A program made the translations under genes and the position numbers. Under the pieces are notes generated by a model. The model was not told the origin of the DNA. It saw only the letters and a program-made list of their open reading frames with translations, and did not search any database. From Cetorhinus maximus (lineage: Eukaryota): 64,000 bases of DNA. Each line of letters starts with the position of its first letter. Position 1 is the first letter of the stretch. The DNA lies in NCBI RefSeq assembly GCF_964194155.1, contig NC_135890.1:107322001-107386000 (forward strand), read 5' to 3'. Shown piece by piece: positions 13,223 to 50,326 of this stretch.

Positions 13223-13280
13223 GAAATGAAACCGAAACCAAACAGTCAAAACAAGTCGTGATTCTGAGGAAATCGAAAAG
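13223..13280 (+). promoter_or_regulatory. ISRE cluster of the OASL copy A promoter
   Basis: gaaatgaaaccgaaacc (13223-13239, canonical GAAACCGAAAC core) and ggaaatcgaaaag (13268-13280), 220-270 bp upstream of the ATG. Confidence 0.8.
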
Positions 13281-13495
13281 GATTTGGTGTTTAATTGGGA
13301 TCATATACAAATAATTGAGCAAGGAAAAACTTTGAACCGGGTGGAGATATAGAACTGTGACGTGTATAATGTGTATTTGTTGAAAGGTTTTACTTTATAA
13401 GCCTGACTATATTGTTTGAATACTTGAAGCAACGGTTAGAGCTGTGGTTATAAGGAGCTGTAGTTATACCAACATCACTTTGTGTGAAAGCTGGA

Positions 13496-13669
13496 ATGAT
13501 GGAATTATACAGAACTGATCACAGGAGGTTGGACGATTTCATTAAAACTAACCTGGAGCCGAATGAATTTAATATCAATGTGAGGAAGGCTGTGCACAAA
13601 ATCTGTGACTTTTTAAGGAATCGATGTTTTCTCAAACAACCTGAGATCAAAGTAATCAGAGCCGTTAAA
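13496..13669 (+). CDS. OASL: OASL copy A exon 1 (58 aa)
   Basis: MMELYRT...LDDFIKTNLEP...FLRNRCF...AVK, then donor gtaagt. Equivalent to OAS exon A. Confidence 0.9.
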
Positions 13670-16600
13670 GTAAGTTATTTTATTTTTAAAGCAGCACATG
13701 GAATTAATAATGTTTACAATACTATTTACGATAACAGGAACTTTACCTTGCTTAAGTACGGAGATGTTTTCTGACGTGATTGTGAAGTTTCCTGTTTTCT
13801 GTGTTGTACTCCCTTCTCTCTAGAATATGTAAACTCGCTGTAGGACACAGTTTCAAGGGTGGCAGTTGCCTCCAGTATCTCAAATAAATTAATGGGATTA
13901 GGTGGGATCATCATCATTTCATGGGACGATCTCAAAATGATGTCGATTTGCCCTTTCAACGGCACAAATTTCCCGGAAAACCTGGATTAAAAGGGGATTA
14001 TTTGCCTAAAGGGACAGAATGTTTTTGACCTGCTTGTTTTAAAAGCTCAGCAGCTTTAGATGTTTATCTGTTAAAGGGAACATTTACTTCAAATCTGTTT
14101 CTCTTAAAAAACTACATTTGGATGAACTTTTATCAAATTATTAATTTTATCATGCTTTAAATATGCTCCTCAAAATCAATAACAGTCCCAATTCCTAAAG
14201 TCACAACACACTTGTAAAGCAATTTTAATTTTAAGGCAATAAAGAACTGGTGTGTTACCTAAAATACACATTTCATGTTATTTAGCAATAAATGAAACCC
14301 AAAAATTGGGGAAGAGAGGGAATTTCTCTTCTCCTCCCCACCACGCCCACTAATTCTGAGCACCCCCTCTATTCATCTGATCTTCAGTCAGCTGCAATAA
14401 CATCAATTTTCTCTTTAGGGGAGGGAAGCAGGAGTCGGGACTGTTACTTTATCCTGGGGCCAGAGGGATACCAGTCACTCTTTGGGATTTTGCCCAGAGT
14501 GCCCTTTTAATTGATATGGAGACAGGTCCCTCCTCCAGTTAAGAGCAGTGGGTGGGCTCTCGAAGCTGGAGGGGCAATCTGGGGCCTTTTAGCTTGAGAG
14601 GACCACCTGGCTATAGCAGAAGGTAAGTAGCTAAGAGGGTGCTTCAACATGGAGGTGCTCTTTCAGTAACCAATTGAAAAGTTTAGTCAAGAAGTATAGA
14701 AATGAGCCAGGCTGCCACTGTGGGGCTTTTGATGGAACGAGGGGGCGATTCGCTCTTTGGCTGCAATCGCACCAGGACACGGGTCGGGGGGAGGAGGGGG
14801 CCTGCCTGCTTAGGGCACTGCCCCCTCTCCCAGCCATTGGATGCCTGCCTCCAGGCAGTTGAACTGCCCTAGTCACATCAGGAAAGTGGAGACTGACTGG
14901 AATCTGAGTCAGCCTCTAATACCCACTGTTAACAAAGATCTTAATGAGTTGACCTAATTGACTTCTGGGTTGGGCATTTTAGCCGGGCTCCCAAACCCGC
15001 CTCCCCCAAAATGGCCAATATGGGAATGGTGTCTGGAAACCGGCTGCCGACCATTTTGAATTCAGCTCTGTCCCTGACTTCAGCAGGGCCTGAAAATTCA
15101 GTGCAGTGAGTCTGTCACATTTACTCTTGTACAAGGGATGGCAGAGAGAGCAGGTCACAGCTAAGTGGTAGTTAGTGGCTTCACTCTTGTTTAAGCTTTT
15201 TAAAAAGAAAACTGTCAAGAGATTTAGTTTGCAACTTATGATTTTATTGTCATACTTAAACAGAAAGTTGTTTGGCAGATTGTGACTTGGTAGCAACTCT
15301 GCCACTGGCTAAGAATAAAAATGCAAAGAATTACATTAATCCCCACAAAAAGATCACCAAATGGGGCAATACCACTCTGTTGATAACAGAGTTAAAATTG
15401 AGCACAAAGGCTAGACAAGAAGGGAACAATCAGCCCAGGTTTCCCAATCCTGTTCAGTGAGGAAAAGATTAGGCTGTGATGCCCCACATGGTTGAATAGC
15501 CTGTTGTCACCTGTGGTCCAAGATAACATATGAATAATGGCTAATGAGGGGAATTGCTGAAGTGGGCTTCTGGACCTCTGTCTCATTAAAGTGTCAGCAC
15601 CTTCACAAAAAGACGGCAAGAGGAGAAAAATCAGAAGGAAAATGGCAGTGAAAATTAAGCCTAAATCAAGAACACAGATAGTCTGCATGGCTTCAATAAC
15701 TCTTCCACATTTCAGTAATGGTAAGTTCACCAGTCATTGAAATAATCATAAATAATTGTCTATTTTCCCTCCTCCTCAGGGAGGGTCGTCAGGCAAAGGA
15801 ACAGCTTTAAGAAACGGTTCAGATGCGGATCTGGTTGTCTTCCTCAGTTGTTTCCAGAGTTTCCAGGAGCAGAGGAACACCAGGCATGAAATCCTTGAAG
15901 GAATCCAGCAAATGCTGGAAAAGTGTGCTTTGAGCATTGCCTATGAGATCAGTGATATCAGTATCAATGTTAAACCGAGCAGCAACAGCCCACCAAAATC
16001 GATGAGCTTTTCAATAAAATCAAAGAAGAAAGATTCAGACAGCGTGGATTTTGATATTTTGCCAACATTCGATGCATTAGGTAAGAATTGATGCGGTTAT
16101 TAAATCATTAAAGCTCAAGTTTAATTTTAGTTCTTCCAATAGCCTCTGCTGCCCATCAAGAAAAACAGTGGGTGTTATCAGCTTTGCTTTATCACATGTC
16201 CTGTTCCTAGTTAAGATGATGCCATAGTTGAGCTCTATATTTGGTTATTAGAGTTGTTGCTGAGGGAGAATATGTTGCTTTTTAAGTGGGACATTAGCCT
16301 AGGTTTAGGATTGACATTATTAACTGGCGTTAACAGTTTGGTATTATGATGCTGATGGAAAGTCTAGGATACAAACACTTTAACGTAAAGAAACAAAATC
16401 TAACCAGTAATGTTGATGTCTGAATTTATTTCATTTCCCCTCCTTTTCTAAAGCAAATAATTCAGTTCTTTAGTCACCAGAAGTACCTGGTACTTCTGTC
16501 AGCTGATCATTTTTCATACAAAAACAGGAGTGTCAGCAGCAACACAAAAATAAAATACTGTGGATGCTGAAAATCTGAAATAAAAGCAGAAAGTGCTGAA

Positions 16601-19600
16601 AATATTCATCGTGCCTAGCAGCGCCTGTGGAGAGAAACAGAGGCCTGGATTTCACCATGATGGAGGGCCTTTCCGCCATGGTGAAAATAGTGGACAAGCC
16701 CGGAAATAGGAAGTCCCACCCCCAAACACCACACTTTCCATTTTCGTGAGGTGGGAATGAAGTTGGGCTGGGGTTTGTGCATAGGTGGATTATGGACGCA
16801 GCTGGTGGTATAAATCACCAGCTGCCTCCACTGAAGTGGGATTTTGGTCAGCCGGGTGTGTGAAACCCAAAGTGTGTAGATTGGACCAGATGAGAGTAGG
16901 GCCCAGGTTTTTGCCCAGGGGTTGGGAGATTTCCTGGCTTGGCGAACCCAATCTTTAAAAGTGTCCGCCCGACAATCAGATTTTTGGTCAACAAATGGAG
17001 GTGAAGCTTAAATAGGAGTGACCCCAGAACAAGTGCAGTGGCTAGCGGGTGTAGAGGTGGGATGGGCGCAAGGCCTGAAAAACAAAACACATCCCTCCTA
17101 CCTCACCCCTTGCCCCCTCACCCTCCCTCACACACCATGTGCCTCGTCCATGCGAACGCATGCTCCTGTACACACACCCAATGCCTCTCCATACCCCCAT
17201 GCCAACTTAGTGTCAGCTCACTCCAACTCCTGCCCCCAACCCACCACCCTTTTCCTCTAACCCCCTTCAAGCCAACTCACTAAGAATCCATGGACAGTTC
17301 CTTGACAGCTTTGACAGCTGAACAGTTATTTGACAGACAGACAGTTCTTCAATAGTTCCTTGACAGCTGTACAGCTCTTTAACATTTATTTGCTAGCCGG
17401 ACAGTTCTTTAACAGCTGGACAGTCCTTTAACATTTATTTGACAGCCGGACAATTCTTTAAGAGTTTCTTGACAGCTGGACAGTTAAACATTTCTTTGAC
17501 ATCTGGACAGTTCCAAGGAGATTCTGTGTAAAAAGTGCGTAATCATGTTTATTTTAACGATGCTAAAGGCTACCTTACCTCTCCCAAAGGTGTCTCAAGA
17601 CTCTACACAAAGGGGTACCCTGACTATCCAAAGAATCCACCAAGTTCAGACCGCCTCTTACCTGGTCTGCTCTGCGCAGTTCGAGATTCCAGCAGCCAGA
17701 GTTCAAAAATCCCATTTCAGTGGAGGAACTGGTGATTTAAATGGCCAGCTGCTTCCACAAATCGCGCATGTGCAAAGCCTGGTCCCACTCCAGTCTCGCC
17801 CTCACGAAGATGGGAATTACTGGGTTCGGGGGCGGGACTTAGAAATCTCTGCCATTTTTGAGACTTTTGCCACGCCGGAGAAGCTCTCCAACCCGGGTGT
17901 GAAAATCCAGGCCAGAGTTAACATTTCAGGTCAACCTTTCATCAGAAATCTTCTTTCGGATCAGGCAAAAGTTAGAAGTGAAATAAGTTTAAAGCAAATC
18001 AAAGGGAGGAGGGTGGGAAAAAGAATAAAGGGGACAGTGTTTGAAAGGTAGGGGAGATTAGATGACAAATGTGTTGATAGTGAAAGGCCAAAAGGGAGTG
18101 GTATTTTGGACAAGTTATAAAAAAGATGTTTCTGCAGGAGGTGTCAATGGCAGTGTCATGAACAGCTGCCATCTGCAGACAAAAAAATGGAGAAAAACAG
18201 GAGAGAAAAAATAAAATCAGCAAAGAAAAAGGAAACAAATGGAGGCTGAGGTCACGATTTGAAGTTGTTAAACTCAATGTTGAATCCAGGAGAGTGTAGA
18301 GTGTCTGATTAAAAGATGAAATGCTGTTCCTCAAGCACACGCTGAGCCTCCAGTGTAGGAGGTCAGCGATAGAGGTCAGAGTGGGAGCATGGTCCAGAAT
18401 TACAATGACAGGTTTGGGGAAGTTTGGGGTTATCTTGCAGACTGAACAGAGATGTTCTGCAAAGTAGTCACCAAATCTGCATTTGGCTTCTCCAGTGTAA
18501 AGGAGGCAGGGACGACAGGAAACTAAATTGAGTAAATTAATGTTTCACCTGGAAGGAATCTTTGAGGCTTTGGACAGTTAGAAGGGAAGAGGTAAAAGGC
18601 CAGGCATTGTATCTGCTGTGATTGCATGGAAAGGTGCTGTGGGAAAGAGAGGGAGGTGCTAGCAGGGTGATTGAGGAGTGGACCAGGGTGTTGCGAAGGA
18701 ATTGGTCCTTCTCAAAAAGAAGGGAAGATGTTTTTAGGTGGCGGCATCATGCTGGAGGTGGTGAGAAAGGTGGAGGATGATCCATTGAAGAAAAAGGCTG
18801 GTGGGGTAGTAGGTGAGGACCAGTGGAACCCTATTGTGGTCCTGGAGAGAAAAGGAAGGGTTGAGAGGAATGTGTAAAATGGAACGGATATGGCACAACG
18901 GACTTAAAATGTAAGAGTGTTAAAGGATTACTTGGCCTGGAGAGTGGGGGCACCATACCCTGCTTACTTGTGATGACCACAAACACTTTCTGTTGCTCAT
19001 TAAGCATTTCATTTCTTACAGAGGGAACAGACAATGCCAATGAAGCCCACCTCAAGCTAATCAATTTAGTAAACGAAAATGGAGCTCTAGGTGGGGAATT
19101 TTCTTCCTGTTTTACTGAGCTTCAGAGAAACTTTGTGAAGCAGTGTAAACCAAAACTTAAAGACTTGATTCGCCTGCTGAAGTATTGGTACAATCAGGTA
19201 AGTGACTGGGGAACATGATAATTGTTAATACTTGGAGGTTATGGGAGGATTGTAACACTGAAAGACAGCTTCCCTCTGTGTCTCAAAGAACAAAGAACAA
19301 AGAAAAGTACAGCACAGTTACAGGCCCTTCGGCCCTCCAGGCCTGCGTCGATCATATTGCCCGTCAACTGAAACATTTTGCACTTCCGGGGTCCGTATCC
19401 CTCTATTCCCATCCTATTCATGTATTTGTCAAGCTGCCTCTTAAACACCACTATCGTACCTGCTTCCACCACCTCCTCTGGCAGCGAATTCCAGACACTC
19501 ACTACCCTATGTGTAAAAAACTTGCCCCGCACATCTCCTCTATAGTTTTCTCCTCTCACCTTAAATCAATGTCCCCTAGCAATTGACTCTTCCACCCTGG

Positions 19601-22600
19601 GAAAAAGCTTCTGACTATCTACTCTGTCCATGCCACTCATAATTTTGTAAACTTCTATCAAGTCGCCTCTCAATCTCTGTCGCTCTAGTGAGAACAATCC
19701 GAGTTTCTCCAACCTCTCCTCATAGTTAATAACCTCCAGACCAGGCAGCATCCTGGTAAACCTCCTCTGCACCCTCTCCAACCCCTCCATATCCTTCTGG
19801 TAATGTGGCGACCGGAATTGCACGCAATATTCCAAACGTGGCCTAACCAAGGATCTATACAGCTGCAGCATGACTTCCCAGCTTTTATACTCAACACCCC
19901 TGTTAATGAAGGCAAACATGCCATATGCCTTCCTGACTACCTTATCCACCTACGTTGCCACTTTCAGTGATCTGTGGACCTGTACACCCAGATCCCTCTG
20001 GCCGTCGATGCACTTAAGGGTTCTGCCATTTACTGTATAATTCCTGCCTGTATTAGGCCTTCCAAAATGCATTACCTCGCATTTGTCCGGATTAAACTCC
20101 ATCTGCAATTTCTCCGCCCAAGTCTCCAACCGATCTATATCCGGTTGTATCCTTTGACAATCCTCTTCACTATCTGCAACTCCTCCAACCTTAGTGTCGT
20201 CTGCAAACTTACTAATTAGCCCAGTTACATTTCCTCCAAAGCATTTATGTATACTACAAACAGCAAAGGTCCCAGCACTGATCCCTGCGGAACTCCACTA
20301 GTCACAGCTCTCCATTCAGAAAAGCACCCTTCCACTGCTACCCTCTGTCTTCTATGACCAAACCAATTCTGTATCCATCTTGCCAGCTCACCTCTGATCC
20401 CATGTGACTTTACCTTGTGTACCAGTCTGCCATGAGGGACCTTGTCAAAGGCCTTACTGAAATCCATGTATATAACATCCACTGCTCTTCCATCGTCAAT
20501 CATCTTTGTCACTTCCTCGAAAAACTCGATCAAGTTAGTGAGACACGACTTCCCCTTCACAGAACCATGCTGCCTCTCACCAATACGCCCATTTGCTTTC
20601 AAATGGTAGTAAATCCTGACACGAATAATCTTCTCCAATAATTTCCCTATCACTGACGTAAGGCTCACCGGCCTGTAATTTCCTGGATTATCCCTGCTAC
20701 CCTTCGTAAACAATTGAACAACATTGACCATTCTCCAGTCCTCTGGGACCTTACCCGTAGCCAGTGAGGATACAAAGATTTCTGTCAAGGCCCCAGCAAT
20801 CTCCTCCCTTGCCTCCCTCAGTACTCTGGGGTAGATCCCAACTGGCCCTGGGGACTTATCCACCTTAATATTCTTCAAGACGCCTAACACCTCCTCTTTT
20901 TTGATCTCAACATGATCCAGGCTATCTACACACTCTTCCCTAGACAAATCGACCGCTAAGTCCTTCTCTTTGGCGAATACTGATGAGAAGTACTCATTTA
21001 GTATCTCTCCCATTTCTTCTGGCTCCACACACAGATTGCCACCTCTGTCCCTGAGTGGGTCTACCCTTTCCCTGGCTACCCACTTGCTTTTTACATATGT
21101 ATAAAAGGCGTTGGGATTTTCCTTAATCCTGGTTGCCAGTGACTTTTCATGACCCCTTTTAGCCCTCCTGACTCCTTGCTTAAGTTTCTTCCTACTTTCT
21201 TTATATTCTCCACGGGCTTCATCTGTTCCTAGCCTTCTAGCCCTTACGAATGCTTCCCTTTTCTTTTTGACTAATCTCACAATATCCTTCGTTATCCAAT
21301 GTTCCTGAAACTTGTCATACTTATCCTTCATCCAAGCATCACCACATCCACCCACTCCATTGACAAATCCTACGGATGAATCTAGGGATCCCCCATATTA
21401 AAAACCAGCAACGAGTTGTCTGGGATGTTTGCATGGAGGGGGATTGAGAGAACCTTTGGAGAAATGTCCATTTGTGCTGTTTCTCCAGCACCTACACCAG
21501 TCTCTGCTGAATTTACAACAGGAGGTTAGCAGATCCCAGAGAAAGTCAGGCTCAGTATTTGGAATAACTCAAGATTCTTGCTTCCCCTCTGCTGGAATTT
21601 GACTTTAGTTGAAGCTGTTGGAATGAATTTGGACGAAGGGGAGAGCTCCTGTCAGCCTTCTGGTTTAGGCTGAACAAATATTAAAACCACTTCTTGATTC
21701 ACAGAAGAATTAAAGAGCAAATCCCCTGAACCCATATTCTGTGGAGGGGCTGTATTCAAGGGAAGTACAGATCAGAGATAGAGCTTCAACCCTTCAATTT
21801 GCACTTACTTCCAATAAGGCTCTACATTTAGAGTGAGGATCAGGGATTTTACCCTTAAATCTTTTACATTCCCTCAATTTTGTGCCTTAAAGTGACCGTC
21901 TCAAGTTATATAAACCTGCAAATGGCAAGTTTGACCAGCCCCCTATACAAAGCCAAAGGCTGTATTCAATTCTCCAGTGCCTGGGGCTCCAGAATGCAGG
22001 ACAAAAGACAAACAAATGCAAGTTAATTAATCGCTGAAGGAACAATTGAAAAACGATGAGGTGGAAATTGGTTCTCATGGTGCCAATTTTCCAAGTGGAA
22101 AATTGAGGCAAAAAATGACCAACTTCAACCAAAGGCGCCTGAAATATGACCGGTGCAATAAGGGTCTTGGACAATTTCCAGGTGTCCGGGCAACTGTCCG
22201 GAACAGGCATTATGCTCCTTGAATATGTTAATGCGGGATCTAATGCCTGTTTAACGAGGTTTACTGCAACTGGTCAGCGCTGAGTAGTCCCCTCAGATTT
22301 TTGCTTCCACGTGCAGCTTCTACATTAATACATTTTTATACTTCATGTAGTGGCAGGGTCTCCTCCCAGTGGTGCTCCCAACTTCACTGCTGCTAGCAGC
22401 CCACCATCACTCACCTCCCCACCCTCTCCCTATCTGATGGTCATTGCTGGAGAGGCAGCTGGCTGATCTTGGTCCTCATGGAACCTGTGAGCTGTTGTTT
22501 CATACTCGATTTGAGTCCGCATCTTCCCAGCAAATTTCTGATAATGTCCCGAGGTCTAATTTCAGTTGAGTCCCTGGCTTCTGGTGCACACTCCCAGCAT

Positions 22601-25600
22601 GCTGCCTACTTCAGGCAAGAAAATGGACCAAAATAAATTTCTACCCCAGTCACTTTCAGGTGAGATATTCAATGAAAGCCCTGCCTGCCTTCTCAGGTGA
22701 GCCTAAAAGATCCTATTGCACTCTCCAGGGAAGAGTAGGGTGTTTTGCTGGATATCTGGATAAAATTTAACCTCAACCAACATAATGAAAGACAGGCAAT
22801 CTAGCCATTTATCTCATTGTTGTTTGTGGGATCTTGCTGTGTGCAAATTGGTTGCTGCATTGCAACTTCAAAATACCTCATCTTGGGAAGTGCTTTGGGA
22901 AATTTTGAGGTTGTGAGAGGTGTTACGTACCTAATGCCAAGTACTTGCTTTCTTTTGAACTCTGACTCTCCAACGCACTATTCTGTAGGATCATGTCCAC
23001 AATTTGCCCATGGACAGTTTGTGTGCTCAGCCTTATCTTTGTGGAGAGATACTGAACGGAGATTTGGCATTTCATCCAAGAGAAGGAGAAAAAGTTGGAA
23101 TGAGGCCACTTTGGGCAGATCTTGTGGACTTCTTAGTGGATGCTGAGGTGGCAGCACTAGACTAGGTCTAGCTTCAACCAGTCCTATCAAGAAAGTTGCT
23201 TGGTTTCCGAAGAATGATGGAAGTAAAATATATGGAAGCAAAAATATAGGATGGAAGGAGGAGTGAGTACTTTTAATATCTTGTATATTTACATTTATCA
23301 ACCATTTGCTCTAGCATGTCAAGCCACGGGAATCCGAACTGAGACATGGCGATCGTCTTCCTGATAAGTATACAGTAGAGCTGCTGGCTATCTATGCCTG
23401 GGAGCAAGGCAATGGGCAGGAGAGATTCAGCACAGCTGAAGGATTCCGGACAGTCCTTGAACTGATCTGCAGATATCAGGATCTGTGCATCTACTGGACT
23501 CAGAACTACAACGTCGAGAATAGAGTCATTGCAGACTTTCTAATAAAGAAACTCAGTGGCAAGAGGTAATCTTCAATTACATTTAAAACTAAAGCAATTA
23601 GAGCTGATTCACTTCTTTGAACATTTCCCAATTAAGGGGGCTGATTCAGGGCGTTTTTAGGGTCTGGTTCAGTTGGTCTTTAATATCCATCCCTAACTTT
23701 GGCGTCATGGGGTGTCGAATAAGTGACATGTTGGCTGCATCATTTGAATGTGATGAATGTGCAGCTGAATGTTTAGAGTGAGAGTGAATCCAACACATTG
23801 TTCTTTGTGAAAATGTGCCCAAGAGGCAACAGTTTTCATAACGTTACACGCGCCCGCACCTGAACTTCCCCCACACTGGGTGGGGTTGGGGGGGCGGGGG
23901 TGGAATTCTTCCCCAGGTATCTTAAGATATTTACAATCTTTAAACTGCTATAAAAATACAAATTAATACAATTAACATCATAATGTAATTACAGAGGAGG
24001 AAGGGTATATTATTGATCTTAGGTCACCGATACGGAATTGAACCAGTGATATGGTTCCAGAGAAAGGGATCAGAGCCTCTTCCTGGCCCAAACAAGGCCA
24101 CTGAAGAAGCTGAGGCTGAGGTTAAGGACTCCCTATGCTGGGATTTCATGTATCCTTGAGTTTAAGGGGAGCCAGCATGAGTTTTCACATCAATATACAG
24201 AGCGAGAAGAAGTGGGCTGGTTTCCTTTTGAATGGAAGAAGATATGAGGCACAGTTTATCATCCTTTGGGAGTAGACCACTTGGTGATATTCTGGACAAC
24301 AATCACCAGCCCTGATTGACCAACATCACCTTGTTTTGCGCTGTCTGGATCAGGTGCCTGATTGGGACACTAGTGGCAGGATTTTGCCCTCATCAGGTGG
24401 GCTCAGCAGGGGCGAGCGGAAGCAGTTGGGAAGCCGACCACTGTCCGCGATTGGGGCCGGACCGTAATTTTAATCTGGCGGGCCAATTAAGGGGAGGAGG
24501 GCGAGAGTGCAAGTTCGAGCAAGTGTGTGTAGGAAAAGCTCCCTGAGGCACAGAGCTGCCTCAGGGGGATGAAGTTATGAAAAATTACAAATAAAGCATT
24601 TTACGATGTTAAGAAACATGTCCTCTCATGTGGCTCTGTCACATCAGTAAGGACATGTTAGAAATTAGTGTGATCATTTTTTTATAATGACGGATCGAAA
24701 CCTCCTCCCTTTCGTGGATGAGGTTTCGCAAAAAATGCAAAGGCCGCTTTGGGCGTAAAGGCTGAGCTGAGAGATGGGACAGAAATTTCCCCCCGTTGGA
24801 GTTGTGGGGGGGTTGTGTAGGGGCGGGTGGGGGCACAAAACCAATTGGTTTATGTGAGTGGCCCAATTAAGGCCCGCCCAGCGTGACGTGCGCCAGGAAG
24901 CACTGAGCGCTCCCTGTGCGGGCGTTGGGGGGGCGATTCCCTGAGTCAGGGCTGCACGCAAAAGAGCACAGAAATCTCCCAGTGGCATGGAGCTGCCTCA
25001 GGGAGATTAAGTTCGAATTGAAAGTTTTTATTTGAGATAGAGAAAAATTTTTCAGACATGTCCACTCATGTGACAGTGTTACATGAGCTTGGACATATTT
25101 ATTAAGTGTTTGAAAATGTTTTATTGAATTAATAAATCCTTCATGAAACCTCATCCTGCCCGTGGATGAGGGTTCATGATAAATGCGAAGGCCGCATTCT
25201 TAACAACTTTAATTACTTTCTTAATGGCCTTAATAGGCCTTTGAGAGTTTGGTGGGCGTGCAGCTGATGCGGCTGTGCGTCCGCCGAACTGAAGATCTAA
25301 ATGATGCGCGGTGACATCGGGACGCCCGCCCGACGTCACCACACATCATTTTACGCGTCAGGCAAGCGGGCATCGCCCCCACTCACCGACCCGAAAATTC
25401 TTCCCATAGTGATGGCTTCCTGCTAAGTACAGAGTTGAGCTGCTGGCTATCTATGCCTGCGAGTAAGGCAATAGGCAGGAGAGAGTCAGCACAGCTGAAG
25501 GGCCCCAGCCAGTCCTTGAACTGATCTGCAGATATCAGCATCTGTGTACCTCCTGGACCAAGTAGGTGACCACCTGAACGCCAAACGTAAGGTTGGACAG

Positions 25601-27489
25601 GCAGCAAAAGATTTAAATCAATTAGATTGTTAATGGCCTTAATAGGCCTGTTAATTGTCGGTGGGCGCACAGCCAATTCCTGCACGTGCCCACCGCAAAT
25701 ATCATGCATCATTTTATGCTCGTTCAGGTCGGGTGACAAACGAGAATTCCTGCCCTAACTTTCTGTGGAGAGTTTAACTTATAAATAAACACAAATATAG
25801 CAATTCCTTCAAATACACAAGTTGGCTGACAGTGAAACTACCGACAGAACAGCGCCAATCATCCAGCAATTTATGCTGATTCCAAACTCATGGGGTTTCT
25901 CTTTCCCAGCGTGAATTGCTGGGTGATTTCCACAATAATAACAATGAGCGCCATTAAACTTGTCATTATTTTGCCAGCAAACCCCGGCCTATGGTTAATA
26001 ATTGTTTTTGGAACGGTTTTCTTTTTCAGGCCAATAATTCTTGACCCAGCTGACCCAACTGGAAATGTGGCTTTTTCTACTGGATGGTATGTCATGGTGG
26101 ATGAGGCTAATAAATGTCTGAGCATGCCATGTGTCTCTCACGTTCGAGCATGGGACGTCCAGGTAAAACGGTTTTAATAAATCATAAAGTTTTGATACAA
26201 AACAGTGTAAAATGTAGAAATTTTGTAGATTGTGTTGTTCAATCTAGGTGTTCCATCTGTCCAGAATACATAGAACCATAGGACTTAGGAGCAGGATTTG
26301 AAATTAGCTCTCAGACGCAAAGGATCATGTTCTCATTGGGGAGAATTTTCGACGAAGTCACCACCAGTCATTTTACGTGTTGGCGAGCGGGGCCCGCCCC
26401 CTCACGCTGACCCGAAGATTCAGGCCATTAATTACCTCAATCCTCCTTTGGAAACTTCATTCTTTAAAGCAAGCTGGAAATGATAGACCAGTTGCCGGGA
26501 TTTAAAGATATATATAGAGAGTCACATTAATCAGAAGCTCCCCAGGTTCAATTCTCAGTCCATACAGAGCTAGAGGATATCAACGAGGTGAAGGTGGGAG
26601 TGCTACAATTCACCTCAACACCGCTGTGGTCAAGTTGAGGAAAGAATCAGCTGGGATTCCCGCTGACCACATATTATATGTGGACAGAAATTTTTTCTCG
26701 GTTGGTGGGCGCGTGCCTGACCCGCTCAAGCATGAAATGACGCATGAGACCTTTGGCCAAATGTGCCGGGGTCAACGCGCAGTTGCGCAATATTTCGGCC
26801 AACGGGTGTGCACTGGAGCCAAAGTTCGCCCGCCGGCAATTAAGACCATTAAGTAATTAATTAACATAAATTTTTCACCGCCTGCCCAACCTAATGGCTG
26901 GCGGGCAGGCAAAAAGGCCAAGCGGCCTTTGCATTTTTTTTGGAAACCTTATCCACAGGCGGACGAGTTTTCCAAGAGCAAATAAAAATAAAATAAAATC
27001 TTTAATTTTTAATTAACAACATGTCCCTGCTTATGTGGTAGAATCACACGAGGGGACATGTTTCAGTACATTTTTAATTTTTATAATTATTTTCTTTCAT
27101 ATCTCTTACAGCTGCCTCAGGGATATTATGCAGCATTCACTCCCGCGCATTCGTGAAGTTCACACCCTTCCTGATCACTCTCCTTCCCCCCCCCCCTCAC
27201 ACAGGCAGCGTTCTTTGATGCAAGGCTCCATCTGGTCATCACAACGTCAATGCAGATATTCATCAGGACTGTAAATGGGCGTGACCTGACACTTGATGTA
27301 TCCCCAACTGACAAGGTTTTGAGCCTGAGAAATAAGATTGAATCTCTGGAGCGCCTTTCATCGAACCAATACTACCTGACCTATGGATCGATACCATTAG
27401 AAGACGGCCGCACACTGGAATCCTACGGCATTAAGCAACATTCCACCATCACCATCAACTTGCGTCTCCGTGGAGGCAAGGAGACTTGA
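13496..27489 (+). CDS. OASL: OASL copy A: OAS domain intact, UBL1 deleted, UBL2 retained (439 aa if the cryptic acceptor at 27204 is used; otherwise truncated or a pseudogene)
   Basis: Exons 13496-13669, 15780-16080, 19022-19197, 23315-23565 and 26030-26162 are all GT-AG with phases 0,1,0,2,0 joining in frame. Remnant last exon 27205?-27489. Motifs GGSSGKGT, SDADLVVF, FDILP, CFTELQRNF, YTVELL.IYAWE, RPIILDPADPT. Confidence 0.85.
15780..16080 (+). CDS. OASL: OASL copy A exon 2 (P-loop and catalytic Asp triad)
   Basis: cctcag|GGSSGKGT..SDADL..DFDILPTFDAL|gtaag. Confidence 0.93.
16642..17913. mobile_element. Non-autonomous TIR element (Harbinger-like) nested in a Penelope end (copy at 41598..42879)
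   Basis: TIRs ggcctggatttcac / gtgaaaatccaggcc with 3-bp TSD aga. Contains an internal degenerate ttgacagctggacagttc minisatellite at ~17290..17515. Confidence 0.75.
17914..18880 (-). mobile_element. Penelope-like retroelement 3' remnant with hammerhead-like motif (copy at ~42880..43840)
   Basis: NRVPLVLTYYPTSL...FPCNHSRYNAWPFTSSLLTVQ...SFQVK remnant. Minus-strand ctgatga-aaggttgacct-gaaatgtt at 17915-17950. Confidence 0.7.
19022..19197 (+). CDS. OASL: OASL copy A exon 3
   Basis: ttacag|...GEFSSCFTELQRNFVK...LKDLIRLLKYWYNQ|gtaagt. Confidence 0.92.
19285..21343 (-). mobile_element. Young 5'-truncated CR1 LINE insertion, present only in unit A
   Basis: RT motifs YMDFSKAFDKVPH and GVPQGSVLGPLLF; FADDTK follows a frameshift near 20230. 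8-bp (aaagaac)n-type tail at 19285-19304. Empty site at ~44240 in unit B. Confidence 0.93.
23315..23565 (+). CDS. OASL: OASL copy A exon 4 (not in the ORF track)
   Basis: ctctag|HVKPRESELRHGDRLPDKYTVELLAIYAWEQG...FRTVLELI...CIYWTQNY...KKLSGK|gtaat. Confidence 0.92.
24762..25560 (+). pseudogene. Degenerate duplicate of OASL exon 4 inside intron 4, split by a MITE (copy A)
   Basis: 24762-24776 plus 25409-25560 align to exon 4 (cttcctgctaagtacagagttgagctgctggctatctatgcc...). No flanking splice sites; contains an internal stop. Confidence 0.85.
24777..25405. mobile_element. MITE insertion, present only in unit A
   Basis: TIRs ggacagaaattt / aaaattcttccc with TSD atg/ata. Empty site at 47527-47530. 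Confidence 0.8.
26030..26162 (+). CDS. OASL: OASL copy A exon 5
   Basis: tttcag|RPIILDPADPTGNVA...AWDVQ|gtaaaa. Confidence 0.92.
27205..27489 (+). CDS. OASL: OASL copy A remnant last exon: end of UBL1 plus complete UBL2
   Basis: AAFFDARLHLVITTS-MQIFIRTVNG...LRLRGGKET*. The 5' boundary relies on a cryptic acceptor. Confidence 0.65.
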   Translation, partial: AAFFDARLHLVITTSMQIFIRTVNGRDLTLDVSPTDKVLSLRNKIESLERLSSNQYYLTYGSIPLEDGRTLESYGIKQHSTITINLRLRGGKET

Positions 27490-27786
27490 AAATTAATCAT
27501 GAAACTAATGACTATAAAGTGAATTTCACTATTACATAATATCAACTGAATTGAATTAGAATTAGATTTAACCATAGATAAAAAATGCATATTAACTCTT
27601 CCTGCGTCAGAGAATATGTACAAATTAAATAGAATTTGTATGCAAATGAGATAAAGCTTAAGGAAGATTTAGAGTGGATGTGATCTGCTGAATTCTGAAA
27701 CATGTTTAAATTATTTATTGAAGAAATGGCAATTAACTGGAAAACAATCATTTACATTTATTTTACATTACGTATTGGCAGCAGTT

Positions 27787-27796
27787 AATAAATAAA
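27787..27796 (+). terminator. Overlapping AATAAA polyadenylation signals of OASL A (copy B at 50625..50634)
   Basis: aataaataaa ~300 nt after the stop codon. The 3' UTR is AT-rich with several ATTTA motifs. Confidence 0.7.
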
Positions 27797-30700
27797 GCTT
27801 CTTTAAATTATTATCGATTATTTGACTGATTCTGTTCACATAGATCATGGATTCATTTACTTTAATTAGCTGTTATGAATATTTTAAGTTTGCTTACATA
27901 CTAAGGTACAGTGAATAGATTTGTGAAGTAAATTGGATGTATTACAATAACCTTAATATCACAGAGTTGTACAGCTCAGAAGGAAGCCATTAGGCCCATC
28001 ATGTCTGTGTCGGTTCTTTCAAAGAGCTATCCAATTATTCATATTCCCTTGGAAATTTCTCCTTTTCAAGTATATATCCTGTTTTCTTTTGAAGATCACT
28101 GTTGAATCTGTTTCCACAATATCGCAGTAGATGAACTATCTAATGCTGCACAATAAAGATCTTTGATAATAGTGAGCTGATCAATCAGGGCCATAACTCA
28201 TTGGGTGGAATCCTCCGGTCCTGTTGGCAGTGGGCATCATGGTGGGCGTGAGCAGACAATGTGGCGAGAAGGCCAAAAATTGGTTTTACGTCATCATGAA
28301 ACCAGTTTGCAACCATCCGCCCCACCCCCAATGGCGGGTCCGCGTTTCCCGTCGCCACACATTGGGAACCTAATTTCAATACTTTAGCATCTCATTATAA
28401 GCTTTGTTTACTGGAATCATCCAGGCGTCATCACACTGACATGTTTCACAACTCTACATAAGTAATGTGCATCTGGCGAGCTGCACTGCGCTCGGGACTT
28501 TGAGGTTTTTTGCCTACCTTGCTTAGGGCAACACTTGTGGTCATCAGTGCCAGGCTTTGCAGGCTGCACCACATCTCTTTTAGGGGGTGCTCACGGGCAG
28601 GTTTATAGCTACCAGATCTGCTGTAAGGCGGAGGTGGCTTTTCAATGGCTGCAGGGCTAGGGCTTGCTTGGGGGAGGGGGAGAACTCAGACAAGGAAAGA
28701 GGCTGATGGGCGAAGGCTGTACTGGGGAAGGAGGGTATCCAGGGATACGTGTGGGGCTACACGTTGATCAAGATGGTTAGGGCTGAGGAGGCAGTCTCCA
28801 GAGGAGATGAGGCCAGATGGAAATGTGAGGGTCTGTGTGAGAGAGTGAGTGGTGATGTCCCTTGAGCTCGCAGTGAGTGAGATGCTGGTGAGTGTGTGAC
28901 TGCCTTGTGAGTGTGAGAGTTTAGAGCGATAAGATGGTTGCCTTACCCTGGTGGCACAGATCAGATCATTCATCCTCTTTCTGCACTGGATGGCCAACCT
29001 CACCTGAGCAGCATTGGCACTGACCACCATTGCCAATGCCTCCCAAGCCGGAGTGGTGAGGTTGGTGGACCTCCTGTGACCAGAGCGGGAGAGTGGAGGA
29101 CATCACGTGGGTCTACAAAATGCATTCGATTCACTGAACTCTTCATGGGTTTCAGGGCCATGTCTTCACTGGAGCAGTCCTGGGCTGCAAGCATTGAGGA
29201 TTGTGTGTGCGCCTGCAGTTTAGATATGGCACCAAGAGTGAGGAAATGGAGAGGTAATGGTGTGGCAGGCGATTCATAGGCCACACACCAGCGAGACAGC
29301 GCGTTTCCTGTGGCTGCTTATTTTAAAGAGGCGGGAAGTGGAAGATATGGCACGAAAACCCTCCATTACGGCCAGCAGGCAAAATATCAGTTTTCACACC
29401 CACCACTGCACTTAGTGCAAATCTGGGATGATTCTGCCTATTCATTAATAAGATTTGCCTCTGGGTTTCCAGATCATATTTAGTGAGTAACTAACCTTTT
29501 ACTTCATGCCTATAAAGGCTCTCCTGACTTTCTCTTCCTTACCTTGTTGGATTTAACGTAAAGGGTTTCACCTACCGGCCAATCATTCTCTTACCTTTAA
29601 TTTTCAAACAAAAAGCAAAATACTGCAGATGCTGGAAATGTGAAAACGTGTAGAAAATGCTGGAAACACTCAACGGGTCAGAGAGCATCGGTGGACGCAA
29701 GTGTCCACTTTGGTTTCTGACCTTCTTGTGAAAGTTGAAAATTGAAAGCTAGGCCAAGAGCAGCCTTTAACAAGGACAGGACATAGAGAGGGGGAAGAAT
29801 AGAAATACAATGATAAAAAAAAACAGGAAATAGTTAAATGGCAGAATTGATAAAAGGATGAGACTTCAGGAGATGTAACGAGACATATGAAAGACAGATG
29901 TGGAAAACAATTTTTTGTTATTCATTCACAGGACGTGGGCTTCGCTGGCTAGGCCAGCATTTTTACTGGCCATCCCTAATTGCCCTAGAGTAGATTATGA
30001 TGAAAGGTCATTGTGTTGAAACGTTAACTCTGCTTTTCTCTCTCCACAGATGCTGCCTGACCTGCTGAGTATTGCCAGCATTTTCTGGTTTTATTTCACA
30101 TTTCCAGTATCTGCAGTAGTTGCTCTTGTGGAGAGGTGTGGAAAGTGTGTGAACAGTTTTCAAAAATGTGAGGATGAGGCAGGTAGAAAGGGAAGCACAA
30201 AAAATTCACAAAGTACAGATGCAAGCAATTGGATTACACACATCGTACTGATCTAGTGTCACCTGTTTCTGAACTTTTGGGCAATCGATACAAGGGCAAC
30301 GTGAGGGAGAGCTTTTTTACACAGCAAGATGGTGATGCACTGGAACTCACTGCCTACCAGGATGGTGAAAGCAGGGGTGATCAGTGATTGTAAAAGGAAA
30401 TTGGATCAGCAGTTGAGGGATATAAACTTGCAGGGCTACAGGGATAGAATGGGGACTGACTGGGTTACTCTACAAAGAACCAGCATAGACTGGATGGGCT
30501 CAATAGCCTCTTCTCTGTGTCCTAATGATCCCAAATCTATATTTAATATTGCTTCCCAGTTACAAGGGTGGAATTTGTACCTGGTTATGATTTGGTTGGT
30601 ATGCATATATTTCTTGTATTAATTATTCATCACTAACTTCATTGTCTATATGTCTTCTTGTGGGGATTAATCCTTTCCATTGAAATTTCAATAAAATTTG

Positions 30701-33700
30701 CAAATCTGCCTTCCCAATGCCTTCTCAAGGCATTCTCACTAAAACCATGTTTTGGGTTGGCTCTCATAACACTGAGCTGTGCATCCACCACATTCAAATA
30801 ATACAATCAAACTGTCACTTACTGGAATCCCCATGGTGTGAAAATTAGGAATTTGAAGCTCAATTGACCGGATCCCCAAAGACTTCTTGGATTGGCCCTT
30901 TGGCAAGCTGATCAAAACAATGGGCTCTCAAATAGGATATCAAAGTAGTACCTCCTACAGTGTTCACTCCCTCAATACTAGACCCTAGTCTAGAATAGTG
31001 CTTCCCAAACTATCTTCCAATTTGATTCTACTTGAACACATGAAATTTAACACGATCCCAGGTACAACAAAAACAAAACAGCAATAAAGCTGCGTAGCAA
31101 CATTCAGTACCTAATTAGTAAAGTTTGCATATTATATAGATCATATAATACGTCGTATAAAAATGAAAATCTGTGCTTGTAAAGTACTTTGTAAAAATGT
31201 TATTGTTTTATGTACTCACCGGTCCATTACTTCATCTGTGCTGCTCCAGCTCATGGGCCTTGGCTAGGAAGCAGCAGAAGTACAGGTTAAGGGTCTTGAG
31301 GTGGCTGATGTTGATGAGGTGGTTACACAGCGCCAGGGTGATGGATTTGCACTCAGCCAGGCAACAGCTCAGGCCACCAGGTTCATGGTTGGCGATGGAT
31401 TTGAGACTCAGTGAATCGGCCATAGGCAGTAGTCACTGGCTTATAGGGGAGACTGAGTGACGAATATGGCAAGGGCAGTGCCTGATGCTGCCTGCGTCTC
31501 AGTGCAGTTGCTGGGTACAGTCTCAGAGGAGGGGGGAGATCGATCTGGGCTTCACACTGGTGGTGTTTTGAGCAAAGCACATCACCCACAGCTTCAGGCC
31601 CGCCACCCCCCACCACCCCCCACCACCCCTCACCACCAACCAACCCCCACCCACCCCCACCCACCCTCACCTCAACACCATCAAATTTAATCACGTAAGA
31701 TCATAAGAAATAGGAACAGAAGTAGGCCCAACCATTCAATAAGTTAATGGCTGATTGAACTGCGCTTTTAAGTCCACTTTCCTACCTGCCTTCTATAGCC
31801 CTTGACTCCCTTGTCAATCGAAAAATTGTCTTGATGTGATTATCAGGTTAGGATTTGTGTTAACATTGCAGTTTAGCTGGAATAATGGGGTTTCCTTTCA
31901 GCCAGGTAGTCATCTATCTGGGATGACCCAGGGCAAATCCTGTCACTTTGTATTGTGAGACATTGAGTTAAACTGATTAACAATCAATCTGGTAAAATGG
32001 CTAGCATCTGGAGGTTTGGTGATAATCTCACTTCAATATACATATACATCCCTCACAACCCCACTCACTAGTTTGTGAACTGCTGGTCTAAAATATGTGC
32101 TGAAGTTGGATTTATTGCACAGTTTTCTGACACGATGCATCTATGGCACATCTACTACTGAAATACAGCCTGAATAAATTATATTAGCCTGAGCAATTCT
32201 ATTATCATTCATTTTTCAATTCATTTATGGGATGTGGGCCTCGCTGGCTAGACCATCACCTATTGCCCATCCCTAATTGCCCTTGAGAAGTGGTGATGAG
32301 CTGCTTTCTTGAATCACTGCAGCCCATGTGGTATAGGTACACCCACAGTGCTGTTAAGGAGGGTGGTAATGGTAGAGTGTGGGATATGCTGGGCCGTACA
32401 ATTCTGGTGCTGCTGGTGGCCCACAGAGCCTGCTGTCCAGTCTTGACCTGTTTGAAATCTAGACCATTTAGCAAAGCGGTAGAGCCACACAACACAATGG
32501 GGTGTATCCTCTTTGTGATGATGGGACTTTGTCTCTGCATGGACTGTGCTGTGGTCACTCCTACCACTACCATCATGGACAGATGCATTGGCAGCATGCT
32601 GGTGAAGATGAGGTCAAGTACATTTTTCCCCCTCTTCTTGGCTCCCACACCAACTGCCCGCTGCCCAGTCTAGCAGCTATGTTCTTTAGGACTCAGCCAG
32701 CTTGGTTTGTGCTGCTGCTTCCAAGCATTGAAGCCCCTCACCAGGATTCCCCTCAGACCTTTCTCCAAATGGTGTTCAACATTCAGCAGGAGTTCTCCTT
32801 GCCCCTGTCATGCCATGAGACTTCATGGGGGTGCTGGAGTCAAGGTTGACGACTCAACCATATACCACTGTGCCAGCAGGCCTGACGGATCTGTCCTGTC
32901 GGTGGGATTTGAGGTTCCCTGGAGCATTAGCCTGGGTCGTTGGATTACTAGTATAGTGAAAATATCACTATGCCGCCGCCTCCCCTGTACAAAGCTTCAT
33001 TCTTTCCGGCCTGTTGCAATACAACCAATTTTAATAACTTCGCTTTGTTGACACAAGATTCCTTTTTTATGTATTTACCAGTTTCCATATTACACATGTT
33101 CTCATCTCTATACTGAATTTCTTTAATGTCCTTCCTGGTGTTTTCCTAAACTTCAACCTCCATCCACATAAAGTGCAGATAATTGTTTTCAGTCAGAAAT
33201 TATAATCATTCTTTTATCTGCCGAATGCATAATCTATGACTCTGTGACTATCATGCACTCATTCTGATTCAGCCCCTATGATGAAAGGCATTGACTTTAT
33301 TTTATACCCCCTGTGACACCTCAACTGTAAGGAAACAGGGAAGGGATTACAGTGATGTGGCTGGTATAGCACGATGGCATCTCCACATTGGTAACAGTGA
33401 TGTAAATTATATAATTCTAGTTTTTGTACAGGTTGAGGAGAAGTTACAAAAACTGAATTTGGCCACACAATGTCCTGTGTCCTGAGCAGTGATCCATAGA
33501 CAAGTGCTTGATGGCCAGCACAGATACGATGGGCCGAAGCGTCTGTTTCTGTGCTGTATAACCACATGACGCTATGACTCTAATACTATATTTCCTGGGC
33601 AGGTGCCTGAGTTGAGTGTTTGGAGTTTGTTTATGTGAGATTTGGGGAGAGTGAGGGAAGGTGAAGGTGAGGTTGATCAGCCCTGATTTGAATGGCAGAG

Positions 33701-47600: not shown

Positions 47601-50326
47601 GAGAGAGTCAGCACAGCTGAAGGGCTCCAGACAGTCCTTGAACTGATCTGCACATATCAACATCTGTGTATCCACTGGACCAAGTAGGTGACGAGCTGAA
47701 CGCCAACCGTAAGGTTGGACAGGCAGCAAAAAATTTAAATCAATTAGGTTGTTAATGGCCTTAATAGGCCTGTTAGTTGTCGGTGGGCGCGCTGCCAATT
47801 CCTGCGCGTGCCCATCAACCCAAATATCACACGTCATGTACGCCCGCCCAACGAGCGAGGAATCCTGCCCTAACTTTCTGTGGAGAGTTTAACTTGTAAA
47901 TAAACACAAATATAGCAATTCCTTGAAATACACAAGACGGTTGACAGTGAAACTACCGACAGAACAGCGCCAATCATCCAGCAATTTATGCTGATTCCAA
48001 ACCCATGGGGTTTCTCTTTCCGACCTTGAATTGTTGGATGATTTCCACAATAATAACAATGAGCGCCATTAAACTTGTCAATATTTTGCCAGCAAACCCC
48101 GGCCTATGGTTAATAATTGTTTTTGGAACTTTTTTATTTTTCAGGCCAATAATTCTTGACCCAGCTGACCCAACTGGAAATGTGGCTTTGTCTACTGGAT
48201 GGTATGTCATGGTGGCTGAGGCTATGAAATGTCTGAGCATGCCATGTGTCTCTCAAGTTCGAGCATGGGACGTCCAGGTAAAACGGTTTTAATAAATCAT
48301 AAAGTTTTGAAACAAAACAGTATAAAATGTAGTAATTTTGTAGATTGTGTTGTTCAATCTAGGTGTTCCATCTGTATAGAATACATAGGACCATAGGACT
48401 GAGGAGCAGGATTTGAAATTAGCTCTCAGACGCAAAGGATCATGTTCTCATTGGGGAGAATTTTCGACGAAGTCACCACCTGTCATTTTACGCGTTGGCG
48501 AGCGGGGCCCGCCCCCTCACGCTGACCCGAAGATTCAGGCCATTAATTACCTCAATCCTCCTTTGGAAACTTCATTCTTTAAAGCAAGCTGGAAATGATA
48601 GACCAGTTGCCGGGATTTAAAGATATATATAGAGAGTCACATTAATCAGAAGCTCCCCAGGTTCAATTCTCAGTCCATACAGAGTTAGAGGATATCAACG
48701 AGGTGAAGGTGGGAGTGCTACAATTCACCTCAACACCCCTGTGCTCAAGTTGCAGAAAGAATCAGCTGGGATTCCCGCTGACCACATGTTATATGTGGAC
48801 AGAAATTTTTTCTCGGTTGGTGGGCGCCTGCCTGACCCGCTCAAGCATGAAATGACGCATGAGACCTTTGGCCAAACGTGCCGGGGTCAACGTGCAGTTG
48901 CGCAATAGTTCGGCCAACGGGTGTGCACTGGAGCCAAAGTGCGCCCGCCGGCAATTAAGACCATTAAGTAATTAATTAACATAAATTTTTCACTGCCTGC
49001 CCAACCTAATGGCTGGCGGGCAGGCGAAAAGGCCAAGCGGCCTTTGCATTTTTTTTGGAAACCTTATCCACAGGCGGACGAGTTTTCCAAGAGCAAATAA
49101 AAATAAAATAAAATCTTTAATTTTTAATTAACAACATGTCCCTGCTTATGTGGTAGAATCACACGAGGGGACATGTTTCAGTACATTTTTAATTTTTATA
49201 ATTATTTTCTTTCATATCTCTTACAGCTGCCTCAGGGATATTATGCAGCATTCACTCGCGCGTATTCGTGAAGTTCACACCCTTCCTGATCACTCCCCCC
49301 CCCCACCCTCCTCACACAGGCACCGCTCAGCGCTGCCACTCACATGTCACGCTGGGCGGGCCTTCATTGGCCGCCAGCGTGAAATCTCGGTGCAGTGCCG
49401 ATCGCGAGCGGCTTCCCAACCAGCCCTGCCGAGCCCGCAGGCCAAGGGCAAAATTCTGCCCCATGTGTGTGGGTATCAGATAAATTTAAGATCCAACTTG
49501 GTTGGACAGTTGAGTGAAAATCACTGTCTAAGCTCACACAAGAACAATGGCCACTTGTGTGAGATACGGAGTGTAGTTATCACCTCATAACAATCAATCA
49601 GGAGAGAAAGGATGAAAATTAAGGAGATAAACGCAAAAAACTGCAGATACTGGAAATCCAAAACAAAAACAAAAATACCTGGAAAAACTCAGCAGGTCTG
49701 GCCGCATCTGCGGAGAGGAGCACAGTTAACGCTTCGAGTCCGAATGACCCTTCAACAGAACTAAGTAAAAATTAAGGAGATGTAATTATCAGAGCACTTA
49801 GAAACTAGGACACAACTCATTGCTACATTCTTATCTTTTTTTTTTGTCTTAGCCAATAAAAGAGTTTGAAATCACTGTGTTTACACTGGATGGGAGCTCA
49901 TTAAGCCTGAATGTCAATATTGACAACACAATCTCAATGATCAAGAAACAAATCCAGCAAAAATGGGACATTCCAGTTTACCAGCAACGCCTGAGCTTTA
50001 ATGAAGCCATTCTGGATGACAACAAATCCTTGTTGCATTCCGGAATATTCTTTGATGCAAGGCTCCATCTGGTCATCACAACGTCAATGCAGATATTCGT
50101 CAGGACTGTAAATGGGCGTGACCTGACACTTGACGTATCCCCAACTGACAAGGTTTTGAGCCTGAGAAATAAGATTGAATCTCTGGAGCAGCTTTCATCG
50201 AGCCAATACTACCTGACCTATGGATCGATACCATTAGAAGACGGCCGCACACTGGAATCCTACGGCATTAAGCAACATTCCACCATCACCATCAACTTGC
50301 GTCTCCGTGGAGGCAAGGAGACTTGA
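38460..50326 (+). CDS. OASL: OASL copy B, complete: OAS domain plus two UBL domains, 502 aa
   Basis: Exons 38460-38633, 40736-41036, 43977-44152, 46212-46462, 48145-48277 and 49853-50326 total 1509 nt, all GT-AG, with no stop or frameshift. Ends LRLRGGKET. Confidence 0.93.
40736..41036 (+). CDS. OASL: OASL copy B exon 2
   Basis: GGSSGKGT..SDADL..FDILP with GT-AG boundaries. Confidence 0.93.
43977..44152 (+). CDS. OASL: OASL copy B exon 3
   Basis: GEFSPCFTELQRNFVK...LIRLLKHWYKQ|gtaagt. Confidence 0.92.
46212..46462 (+). CDS. OASL: OASL copy B exon 4
   Basis: HVKPRKSDLRHGDRLPAKYTVELLAIYAWE...KELSGK|gtaat. Confidence 0.92.
47515..47682 (+). pseudogene. Degenerate duplicate of OASL exon 4 inside intron 4 (copy B)
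   Basis: Translates ELRDGDRLPAKYRVELLAIYAWGQGNGQERVSTAEGLQTVLELICTYQHLCIHWT. Flanked on both sides by MITE sequence. Confidence 0.88.
48145..48277 (+). CDS. OASL: OASL copy B exon 5
   Basis: RPIILDPADPTGNVALSTGW...AWDVQ|gtaaaa. Confidence 0.92.
48797..49461. mobile_element. MITE in OASL intron 5 (truncated copy at 26682..27210 in unit A)
   Basis: TIRs ggacagaaatttt / aaaattctgccc. Internal motifs are shared with the intron-4 MITEs. Confidence 0.7.
49629..49767 (-). mobile_element. Short Penelope-end-like insertion with 14-bp TSD, same family as 8733..8891
   Basis: TSD aaaattaaggagat at 49615-49628 and 49768-49781. Minus strand reads acttagttctgttgaagggtcattcggactcgaagcgttaactg. Confidence 0.75.
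49853..50326 (+). CDS. OASL: OASL copy B exon 6: tandem UBL1-UBL2
   Basis: Poly-T tract gtcttag|PIKEFEITVFTLDG...IPVYQQRLSF...MQIFVRT...LRLRGGKET*. Confidence 0.93.
   Translation, partial: PIKEFEITVFTLDGSSLSLNVNIDNTISMIKKQIQQKWDIPVYQQRLSFNEAILDDNKSLLHSGIFFDARLHLVITTSMQIFVRTVNGRDLTLDVSPTDKVLSLRNKIESLEQLSSSQYYLTYGSIPLEDGRTLESYGIKQHSTITINLRLRGGKET

Follow-up and report, generated by a model that had tools for sequence, protein, structure and literature searches.

In an array of OAS genes we identify a copy, copy A, that lacks 722 bp including the normal acceptor of its last exon and most of the first of its two ubiquitin-like domains (UBLs), and RNA contigs from this locus join exon 5 to position 27205, directly after a CAG supplied by a MITE-like element. 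Copy A probably represents a working one-UBL synthetase of 439 aa that ends in LRLRGG and is made by splicing exon 5 to the MITE CAG left in place by the deletion. We regard it as a real variant of OASa.U/OASL, which may or may not be adaptive.

The OAS array and the structure of copy A

The DNA analyzed comprises the 64-kb window (C12:107322001-107386000) plus 150 kb of flanking sequence, 214 kb in all; positions given without C12 are those of the window. Eight OAS genes, all on the + strand, lie in the window and its flanks. Using labels of our own, G1, G2, G3, A, B and G7 are type-1 copies, and G4 and G8 are type-2. Some of the OAS copies have ISG15-like genes between them, on the − strand, that encode two UBLs and LRLRGG (window ~9314-9800 and ~59580-60060, with three more upstream); some of these stop at LRLRGG and others read on. 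A ~66-kb duplicate relates the stretch from the end of G1 to intron 5 of G4 to the stretch from the end of A to intron 5 of G8 (99% overall). Within it, the B region (38200-61200) has 0-4 mismatches per kb over ~23 kb when compared with its upstream twin, G2, and the remainder of the duplicate differs more. The near-identity of B and G2 could reflect a very recent duplication, conversion, or a single haplotype that was assembled twice.

Other rearrangements are present in the array. In every type-1 copy, intron 4 contains an incomplete and decayed second version of exon 4 (25416-25558 in A; 47517-47680 in B). Intron 3 of copy A, and of copy A only, contains an insertion of ~2 kb (19287-21343). 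It shows very high repeat depth, bears a frame of 390 aa on the minus strand (20225-21397) and is probably a retroelement fragment. G4, which lies upstream of the window (C12 ~107310288-107321497), is a chimera in which type-2 exons 1-5 are joined in intron 5, near 107319680 (L020), to a type-1 intron and a tandem-UBL LRLRGG exon, with a 3-bp AAG microhomology at the joint. G8, the twin of G4, ends in one UBL and a CaaX-like tail, and this type of last exon (L024, C12:107420393-107420650) is present once in the 214 kb. The tail swap in G4 runs in the opposite direction to the change in copy A.

Upstream of copy A are two ISRE-like GAAANNGAAA motifs (13228..13278, + strand, starting at 13228 and 13269), which we take to be ISREs; both are the same in B, G1 and G2 and are absent from G3 and G7. 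The coding part of exon 1 (13496..13669) is followed by exon 2 (15780..16080), which contains the GGSSGKGT loop, starting at residue 59, and the DAD and DFD aspartates (D73, D75 and D150), by exon 3 (19022..19197), which contains CFTELQ and is missing from G3 and G7, by exon 4 (23315..23565), which encodes the OAS1_C domain, and by exon 5 (26030..26162), which has a phase-0 donor; all are on the + strand. Exon 2 matches PF01909 (E 6.5e-6) and exon 4 matches PF10421 (E 7.9e-29), both above the cut-off. Reading frames are open throughout exons 1-5, which use GT donors and AG acceptors, and none of the six exons contains a stop, a frameshift or a broken splice site, in keeping with a preliminary description of this DNA that considered the other exons and the ISREs of copy A to be intact.

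The catalytic motifs of copy A are intact, its aspartates being matched to human D75-D77-D148 by motif rather than by direct alignment, and the predicted product is likely to be still catalytic. K216N, K223E and A234D, the last two of them in exon 4, fall at conserved columns at which none of 19 relatives has these residues. The best matches of copy A are OAS proteins of cartilaginous fish and tetrapods. By its predicted domains (NTase, OAS1_C and an in-frame C-terminal UBL) it is an OASa.U-type variant; it does not correspond to a canonical OASL, as one UBL is predicted and not two in tandem.

Self-alignment pairs A 25406-27213 with B 47527-49328 and A 27211-31598 with B 50048-54442, breaking exactly at 27210/27211, where the preliminary description had placed the loss of B positions 49326..50047 (+ strand, 722 bp). 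The missing segment contains the 3′ end of the MITE, intron sequence, the normal acceptor AG (49851-49852) and 65 UBL1 codons (195 nt of exon 6, relative to B), so the earlier claim that copy A had lost its normal acceptor and most of UBL1 also holds. The new exon 6 of copy A (27205..27489, + strand) consists of two MITE codons, a 13-residue UBL1 remnant, UBL2 from 27250, and LRLRGG-KET followed by a stop. When spliced from the phase-0 donor of exon 5, its 94-aa frame runs in phase through UBL2, as had been proposed, and gives a predicted protein of 439 aa, equal to the 502 aa of the B protein minus 65 plus 2. Copy A exon 6 has one PF00240 stretch and B exon 6 (49853..50326, + strand) has two. 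A single-sequence fold of copy A exon 6 was uninformative (mean pLDDT 58.6, pTM 0.47).

The junction (27210..27211, + strand) is identical in two further copies beyond the window, G3 and G7, and is thus common to three of the seven copies bearing this UBL2 exon. Comparison of A with B revealed no evident microhomology at this junction. A 27205-27210 equals B 49320-49325 except for one substitution, GCAGCG of copy A being the MITE family state and the variant of B derived. We considered a recent origin of the 3′ half of copy A from G1, with the crossover at the junction, and dropped it because the 99% identity to G1 begins only at ~30300.

A MITE-derived acceptor and its use in RNA

The MITE-like element in intron 5 of copy A is truncated (26681..27210, + strand); its full-length counterpart in B spans ~48796-49460 (~665 bp). 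The repeat is dispersed, with 33 of 40 scored matches (from 3941 candidates) lying outside the locus at 72-80% identity. Inverted ends match in the full-length copies L033 and L034, and the left end is degenerate in A and B. A putative target-site duplication of 3 bp can be picked out visually at L033, L034, L038 and B, provided that the element end is allowed to shift by 1 bp. On the basis of its G-rich ends and 3-bp flanks, the repeat may resemble a PIF/Harbinger-type MITE.

The new 3′ splice site (27171..27204, + strand) has the elements that the preliminary description had listed: a branch-like CTGAT (with A 27174 as the putative branch point), a pyrimidine tract, and CAG (27202-27204). 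The tract upstream of 27205 is rich in C and 94% pyrimidine, and there is a 44-nt zone free of AG. CACAG is a feature of the repeat family, its C-A-x-A-G columns being invariant in all nine rows compared, and the C-rich stretch is likewise family-wide. CTGAT is found in A and B and in none of the seven repeat copies outside the locus. Since the branch-like motif, the tract and the CAG are all present already in the intact copy B, the site is older than the deletion, and B carries it in latent form. What the repeat gives to copy A exon 6 is limited to the acceptor and six coding bases.

We compared the acceptors of copy A by tract composition and AG spacing only. A competing AG at 27110..27111 (+ strand) is out of frame, so that splicing to 27112 would add 14 aa before a stop; this AG is GG in G1, G3, G4 and G7. 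Splicing to 27209 would add 21 aa. The tract of the 27112 site contains ten Ts, versus two in that of 27205. Both of the competing AGs are absent from G3 and G7.

For RNA, we examined assembled contigs from 6 of 19 candidate sequencing runs. Run X15 was treated as RNA of the same species because it contains the exon 4-5 joint spliced at GT..AG and agrees with B/G2 at the variable positions compared. Seventeen X15 contigs aligned within 27095-27500, two of them only partly. In the first of these two, 197 UBL1 letters precede 27211. In the second, the 25 letters before 27202 match the last bases of exon 5 as they read in both A and G7. As both exon 5 and the intron end in CAG, a loose end at 27202 is the mark of a 26162-27205 junction; use of 27209 would shift the loose end to 27206. 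Two unspliced contigs also cross 27155-27231: one, at depth 6, is identical to A over 77 nt (56 letters to the left of the junction and 21 to the right), and the other, of 75 nt, differs at one position and by a gap of 2 nt, as does G7.

To interpret these lengths, we generated 31-mer unitigs in silico for seven splice sets. Lengths of 77, 75, 25 and 197 nt appeared together in just one of them, in which both A and G7 are spliced at 27205, and A-type transcripts therefore use the 27205 junction; use of 27112 alone failed to reproduce the contig ends. Neither of the two partial X15 contigs has a loose end for 27112 or 27209, and X15 has no cover over 27095-27150, so 27112 may still be used at times. 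The predicted 26162->27205 junction is seen in X15 contigs and assigned by the simulation to A-type and G7-type RNA, and we are highly confident that splicing to 27205 occurs. This support comes from one run, in short, low-depth contigs that are not phased to the upstream exons of A. At exon-2 sites X15 has B/G2 letters only, and the exact A letter set does not appear at 27262 or at 27353-27354, owing to either an allele difference or contig collapse. Deconvolution of X15 depth near the junction is underdetermined (four bins, five unknowns), giving ~9-11 for the A-only path versus 6 for unspliced RNA. Because intronic X15 cover is also present for B-type transcripts, the unspliced contigs may be pre-mRNA.

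DNA run X18, taken whole, has no contig across the A junction. In the four best runs, 0.54-0.60 of the words of A are present, about the share (0.60) that the other copies would supply by themselves. At 15869, a letter common to A, G1, G3 and G7 is also unseen in the contigs. As contigs thus drop variants, neither X18 nor the word shares should be read as a sign that A is missing or polymorphic. Run X19 covers repeats only. In a related organism, run X1 joins exon 5 to the normal UBL1 exon and has no cover at the junction, and run X2 has a UBL1-bearing loose end at 27211; we do not take either run to mean that the deletion is absent.

Two NCBI models, P0001 and P0007, are fusions of neighboring genes (G3+G4+A and G7+G8, respectively) that read through stops and skip exons. 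Both use the 27205-equivalent acceptor in G3/G7, and P0001 ends copy A inside intron 5. Other shark and ray records of 880-1970 aa, named 'OAS2/OAS3-like', may be the same annotation artifact.

Sister copies and alternative explanations

How might copy A have come about? An old MITE in intron 5 would have carried a latent C-rich tract and CAG, unable to compete with the T-rich normal acceptor. With the deletion, this acceptor would have been lost and the MITE AG, by chance, left in phase with UBL2, after which the deleted unit would have been copied within the tandem array. The G3/G7 branch would then have decayed, with A keeping all six exons. Interferon-induced dsRNA sensing and synthesis of 2-5A for RNase L would likely be kept in A, and the functions of the tandem UBLs, such as di-ubiquitin mimicry and an ISG15-like surface, would be lost. 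As the LRLRGG end is retained, conjugation may still be possible.

The sister copies G3 (L002) and G7 (L003) lack the equivalents of A 12895-13448 (the ISRE region), 17265-22957 (exon 3) and 26201-26787, leaving A as the only one of the three deletion-bearing copies with all parts. When UBL2 is compared with the intact copies, pN is 0.010-0.019 for A versus 0.063-0.078 for G3/G7. UBL2 of G3/G7 has 13-16 non-synonymous versus 2-4 synonymous differences, above the level of the flanks, and that of G7 ends in LRLRVG. Copy A is a mosaic, with G3/G7 as its nearest relatives across 22958-26200 and G1 or B in the remainder. The clean state of its UBL2 may therefore be due to recent gene conversion and not to selection. 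Over exons 1-5, A and B differ by 22 non-synonymous and 3 synonymous changes, with no purifying signal. Because the counts for the intact pair G1 and G2 are similar (16 and 3), those for A and B do not separate decay from diversification.

These comparisons bear on an explanation that we consider distinctly less probable, namely that copy A is an early pseudogene in a birth-and-death array, with an incidental cryptic splice and a product that is unstable or weakly active. In that case the spliceosome would simply take the best remaining AG, and the fit of the frame would be a 1-in-3 chance. G3 and G7 splice at the same junction though they have lost exon 3 and the promoter; G7-type RNA is present and spliced in X15 despite these losses, and splicing alone is thus no sign of function. 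The unusual substitutions in A, the lack of a purifying signal in its OAS domain, the many deletions, insertions and conversions across the array, and a 13-residue hydrophobic UBL1 remnant that would be left without partner strands are also consistent with decay. However, the six exons of A are undamaged and its promoter motifs are kept, its UBL2 has not drifted as in G3/G7, and UBL2-only units recur, in several copies, in two stingray species. If A is merely decaying, it would be a tidy but ordinary case of cryptic splice activation.

There is a slim chance that copy A mainly produces an OAS without a UBL, either by retaining intron 5 (VKRF-stop, 349 aa) or by using the AG at 27110-27111 (14 extra residues), the one-UBL form being minor. 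The unspliced A contig, the richer supply of T before 27112 (10 versus 2) and the end of P0001 within the intron would fit such an outcome, but the 27205 junction is seen, 27112 alone does not account for the contig ends, and B-type transcripts have intronic cover too. The near identity of B and G2 over ~23 kb, if due to a false haplotype duplication, might suggest that this repetitive locus was misassembled, with copy A or its deletion as an artifact. Such an error is hardly credible given a junction found in three diverged copies and in independent contigs, one of which equals A over 77 nt.

A one-UBL synthetase made by splicing to the MITE CAG therefore remains our preferred reading. The preliminary proposal that the gene was edited by deletion plus transposable element (TE) exonization, rather than lost, stands for the transcript. 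The exonization amounts to an acceptor with two codons, unspliced RNA of A is present as well, and two of the three deletion copies look like pseudogenes.

Altered UBL tails in relatives and known systems

A local UBL profile was applied to 40 hand-picked matches, 38 of them from cartilaginous fish and the others from a caecilian and a coelacanth. Among these records, type-1 units normally have two UBLs, the UBL2-only exceptions being G3, G7 and units of stingrays; a few other records are cut off after UBL1 or have no UBL. Hypanus sabinus has five UBL2-only units in four records (P0110, P0122, P0123 and two in P0121), two of which are identical at 439 of 441 positions and perhaps represent one gene, and Hemitrygon akajei has three in P0124. 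Both species also have two-UBL copies. The stingray units lack 67 residues inside the last exon, and their UBL2 lies at a spacing from the OAS domain similar to that in A (offset 54 versus 58). Since the stingray breakpoints differ from that of the shark, the loss of UBL1 looks independent; to judge from automated models, it apparently affected several copies. Type-2 units have one divergent UBL and a CaaX-like tail in 11 cartilaginous-fish records, and the caecilian units (P0024) have one UBL. As an architecture, an OAS with a single UBL therefore has precedents.

One speculative possibility, which we think unlikely to hold as a whole, is that the OAS arrays of cartilaginous fish are tail-shuffling devices under selection. 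Sharks, through a MITE-rescued deletion, and stingrays, through an amplified exon-internal deletion, would independently have replaced an ISG15-like tandem tail by one LRLRGG domain capable of conjugation, and the array would also have grafted a tandem tail onto a CaaX-type paralog (G4). If so, UBL number would act as a switch, itself evolving, by which the 2-5A/RNase L arm and conjugation are retained and the two-domain surface used by RIG-I and viral deconjugating proteases is shed. The roles of each OASL UBL are known mostly through engineered truncations of bird and mammal proteins, and the apparent second loss in stingrays makes the dispensability of UBL1 and the retention of UBL2-LRLRGG directly testable. 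Copy A also illustrates clearly how a splice site lying dormant in a transposon can rescue a reading frame after a deletion, an event that public automated models overlook in this copy.

Engineered one-UBL forms of duck, ostrich, human-3D and mouse OASL make 2-5A and are antiviral, and do not amplify RIG-I signaling (PMC6019448). Chicken OASL uses LRLRGG for conjugation, and some viral OTU proteases cut its tandem domain (PMC8764230). Activity is reduced in chicken OASL-B, in which UBL1 is partly deleted (PMC7157566). Mouse OASL2 has been called a single-UBL protein (PMC9859756), which conflicts with PMC6019448. In yeast, an OASa from a chimaera is able to couple to RNase L (PMC10400998), and gene conversion between paralogs has been reported for the OASa.U/OASL family (PMC10400998; PMC6307210). 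Our search of the open literature found no report of this locus, nor of OAS with one UBL from sharks or rays; such architectures may be shown in subscription journals or in the supplementary domain diagrams and species tables of PMC10400998. Each ingredient is known, from cryptic acceptor activation and TE-derived splice sites to OAS birth and death and one-UBL OAS. What is new, as far as the open literature searched goes, is the RNA support for TE rescue, the stingray models with apparently independent UBL1 loss in several copies and thus possible convergence, and the combination at this locus.

Copy A shares with OASa.U/OASL the NTP_transf_2, OAS1_C and ubiquitin domains, six exons and an ISRE-like promoter (PMC10400998; PMC6307210). 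It differs in having the second UBL alone rather than the tandem pair, through a recent deletion and a TE-borne acceptor. Avian OASL, which is catalytic and conjugates to itself, resembles copy A in its aspartate triad and in the short extension after LRLRGG; in birds both UBLs are present and ISG15 is missing, whereas the shark array has ISG15-like genes among its OAS copies (PMC6019448; PMC8764230). Chicken OASL-B, as described in PMC7157566, is similar in its natural in-frame damage to UBL1 with UBL2 kept, but its UBL1 deletion is of 32 aa, whereas copy A loses 65 codons together with the acceptor and uses a new one.

The stingray UBL2-only models share with copy A the end architecture, the presence of two-UBL paralogs and the UBL2 spacing. 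In these automated models, however, the loss lies within exon 6, and what remains includes the normal start of the exon and the first strand of UBL1. G8 and caecilian P0024 likewise have one UBL behind the OAS domain; the UBL of G8 is unlike that of A in being divergent, with a CaaX-like rather than an LRLRGG end, and in its separate, older origin. The type-2 CaaX-like end resembles that of prenylated human OAS1 p46 (PMC13372824). Finally, as in the cases of TE exonization in immune genes (PMC10515820; PMC13709765; PMC7617988), a TE splice site alters the end of the protein. Unlike in those cases, the TE site in copy A yields no truncating alternative exon; it replaces a deleted acceptor and restores the domain downstream.
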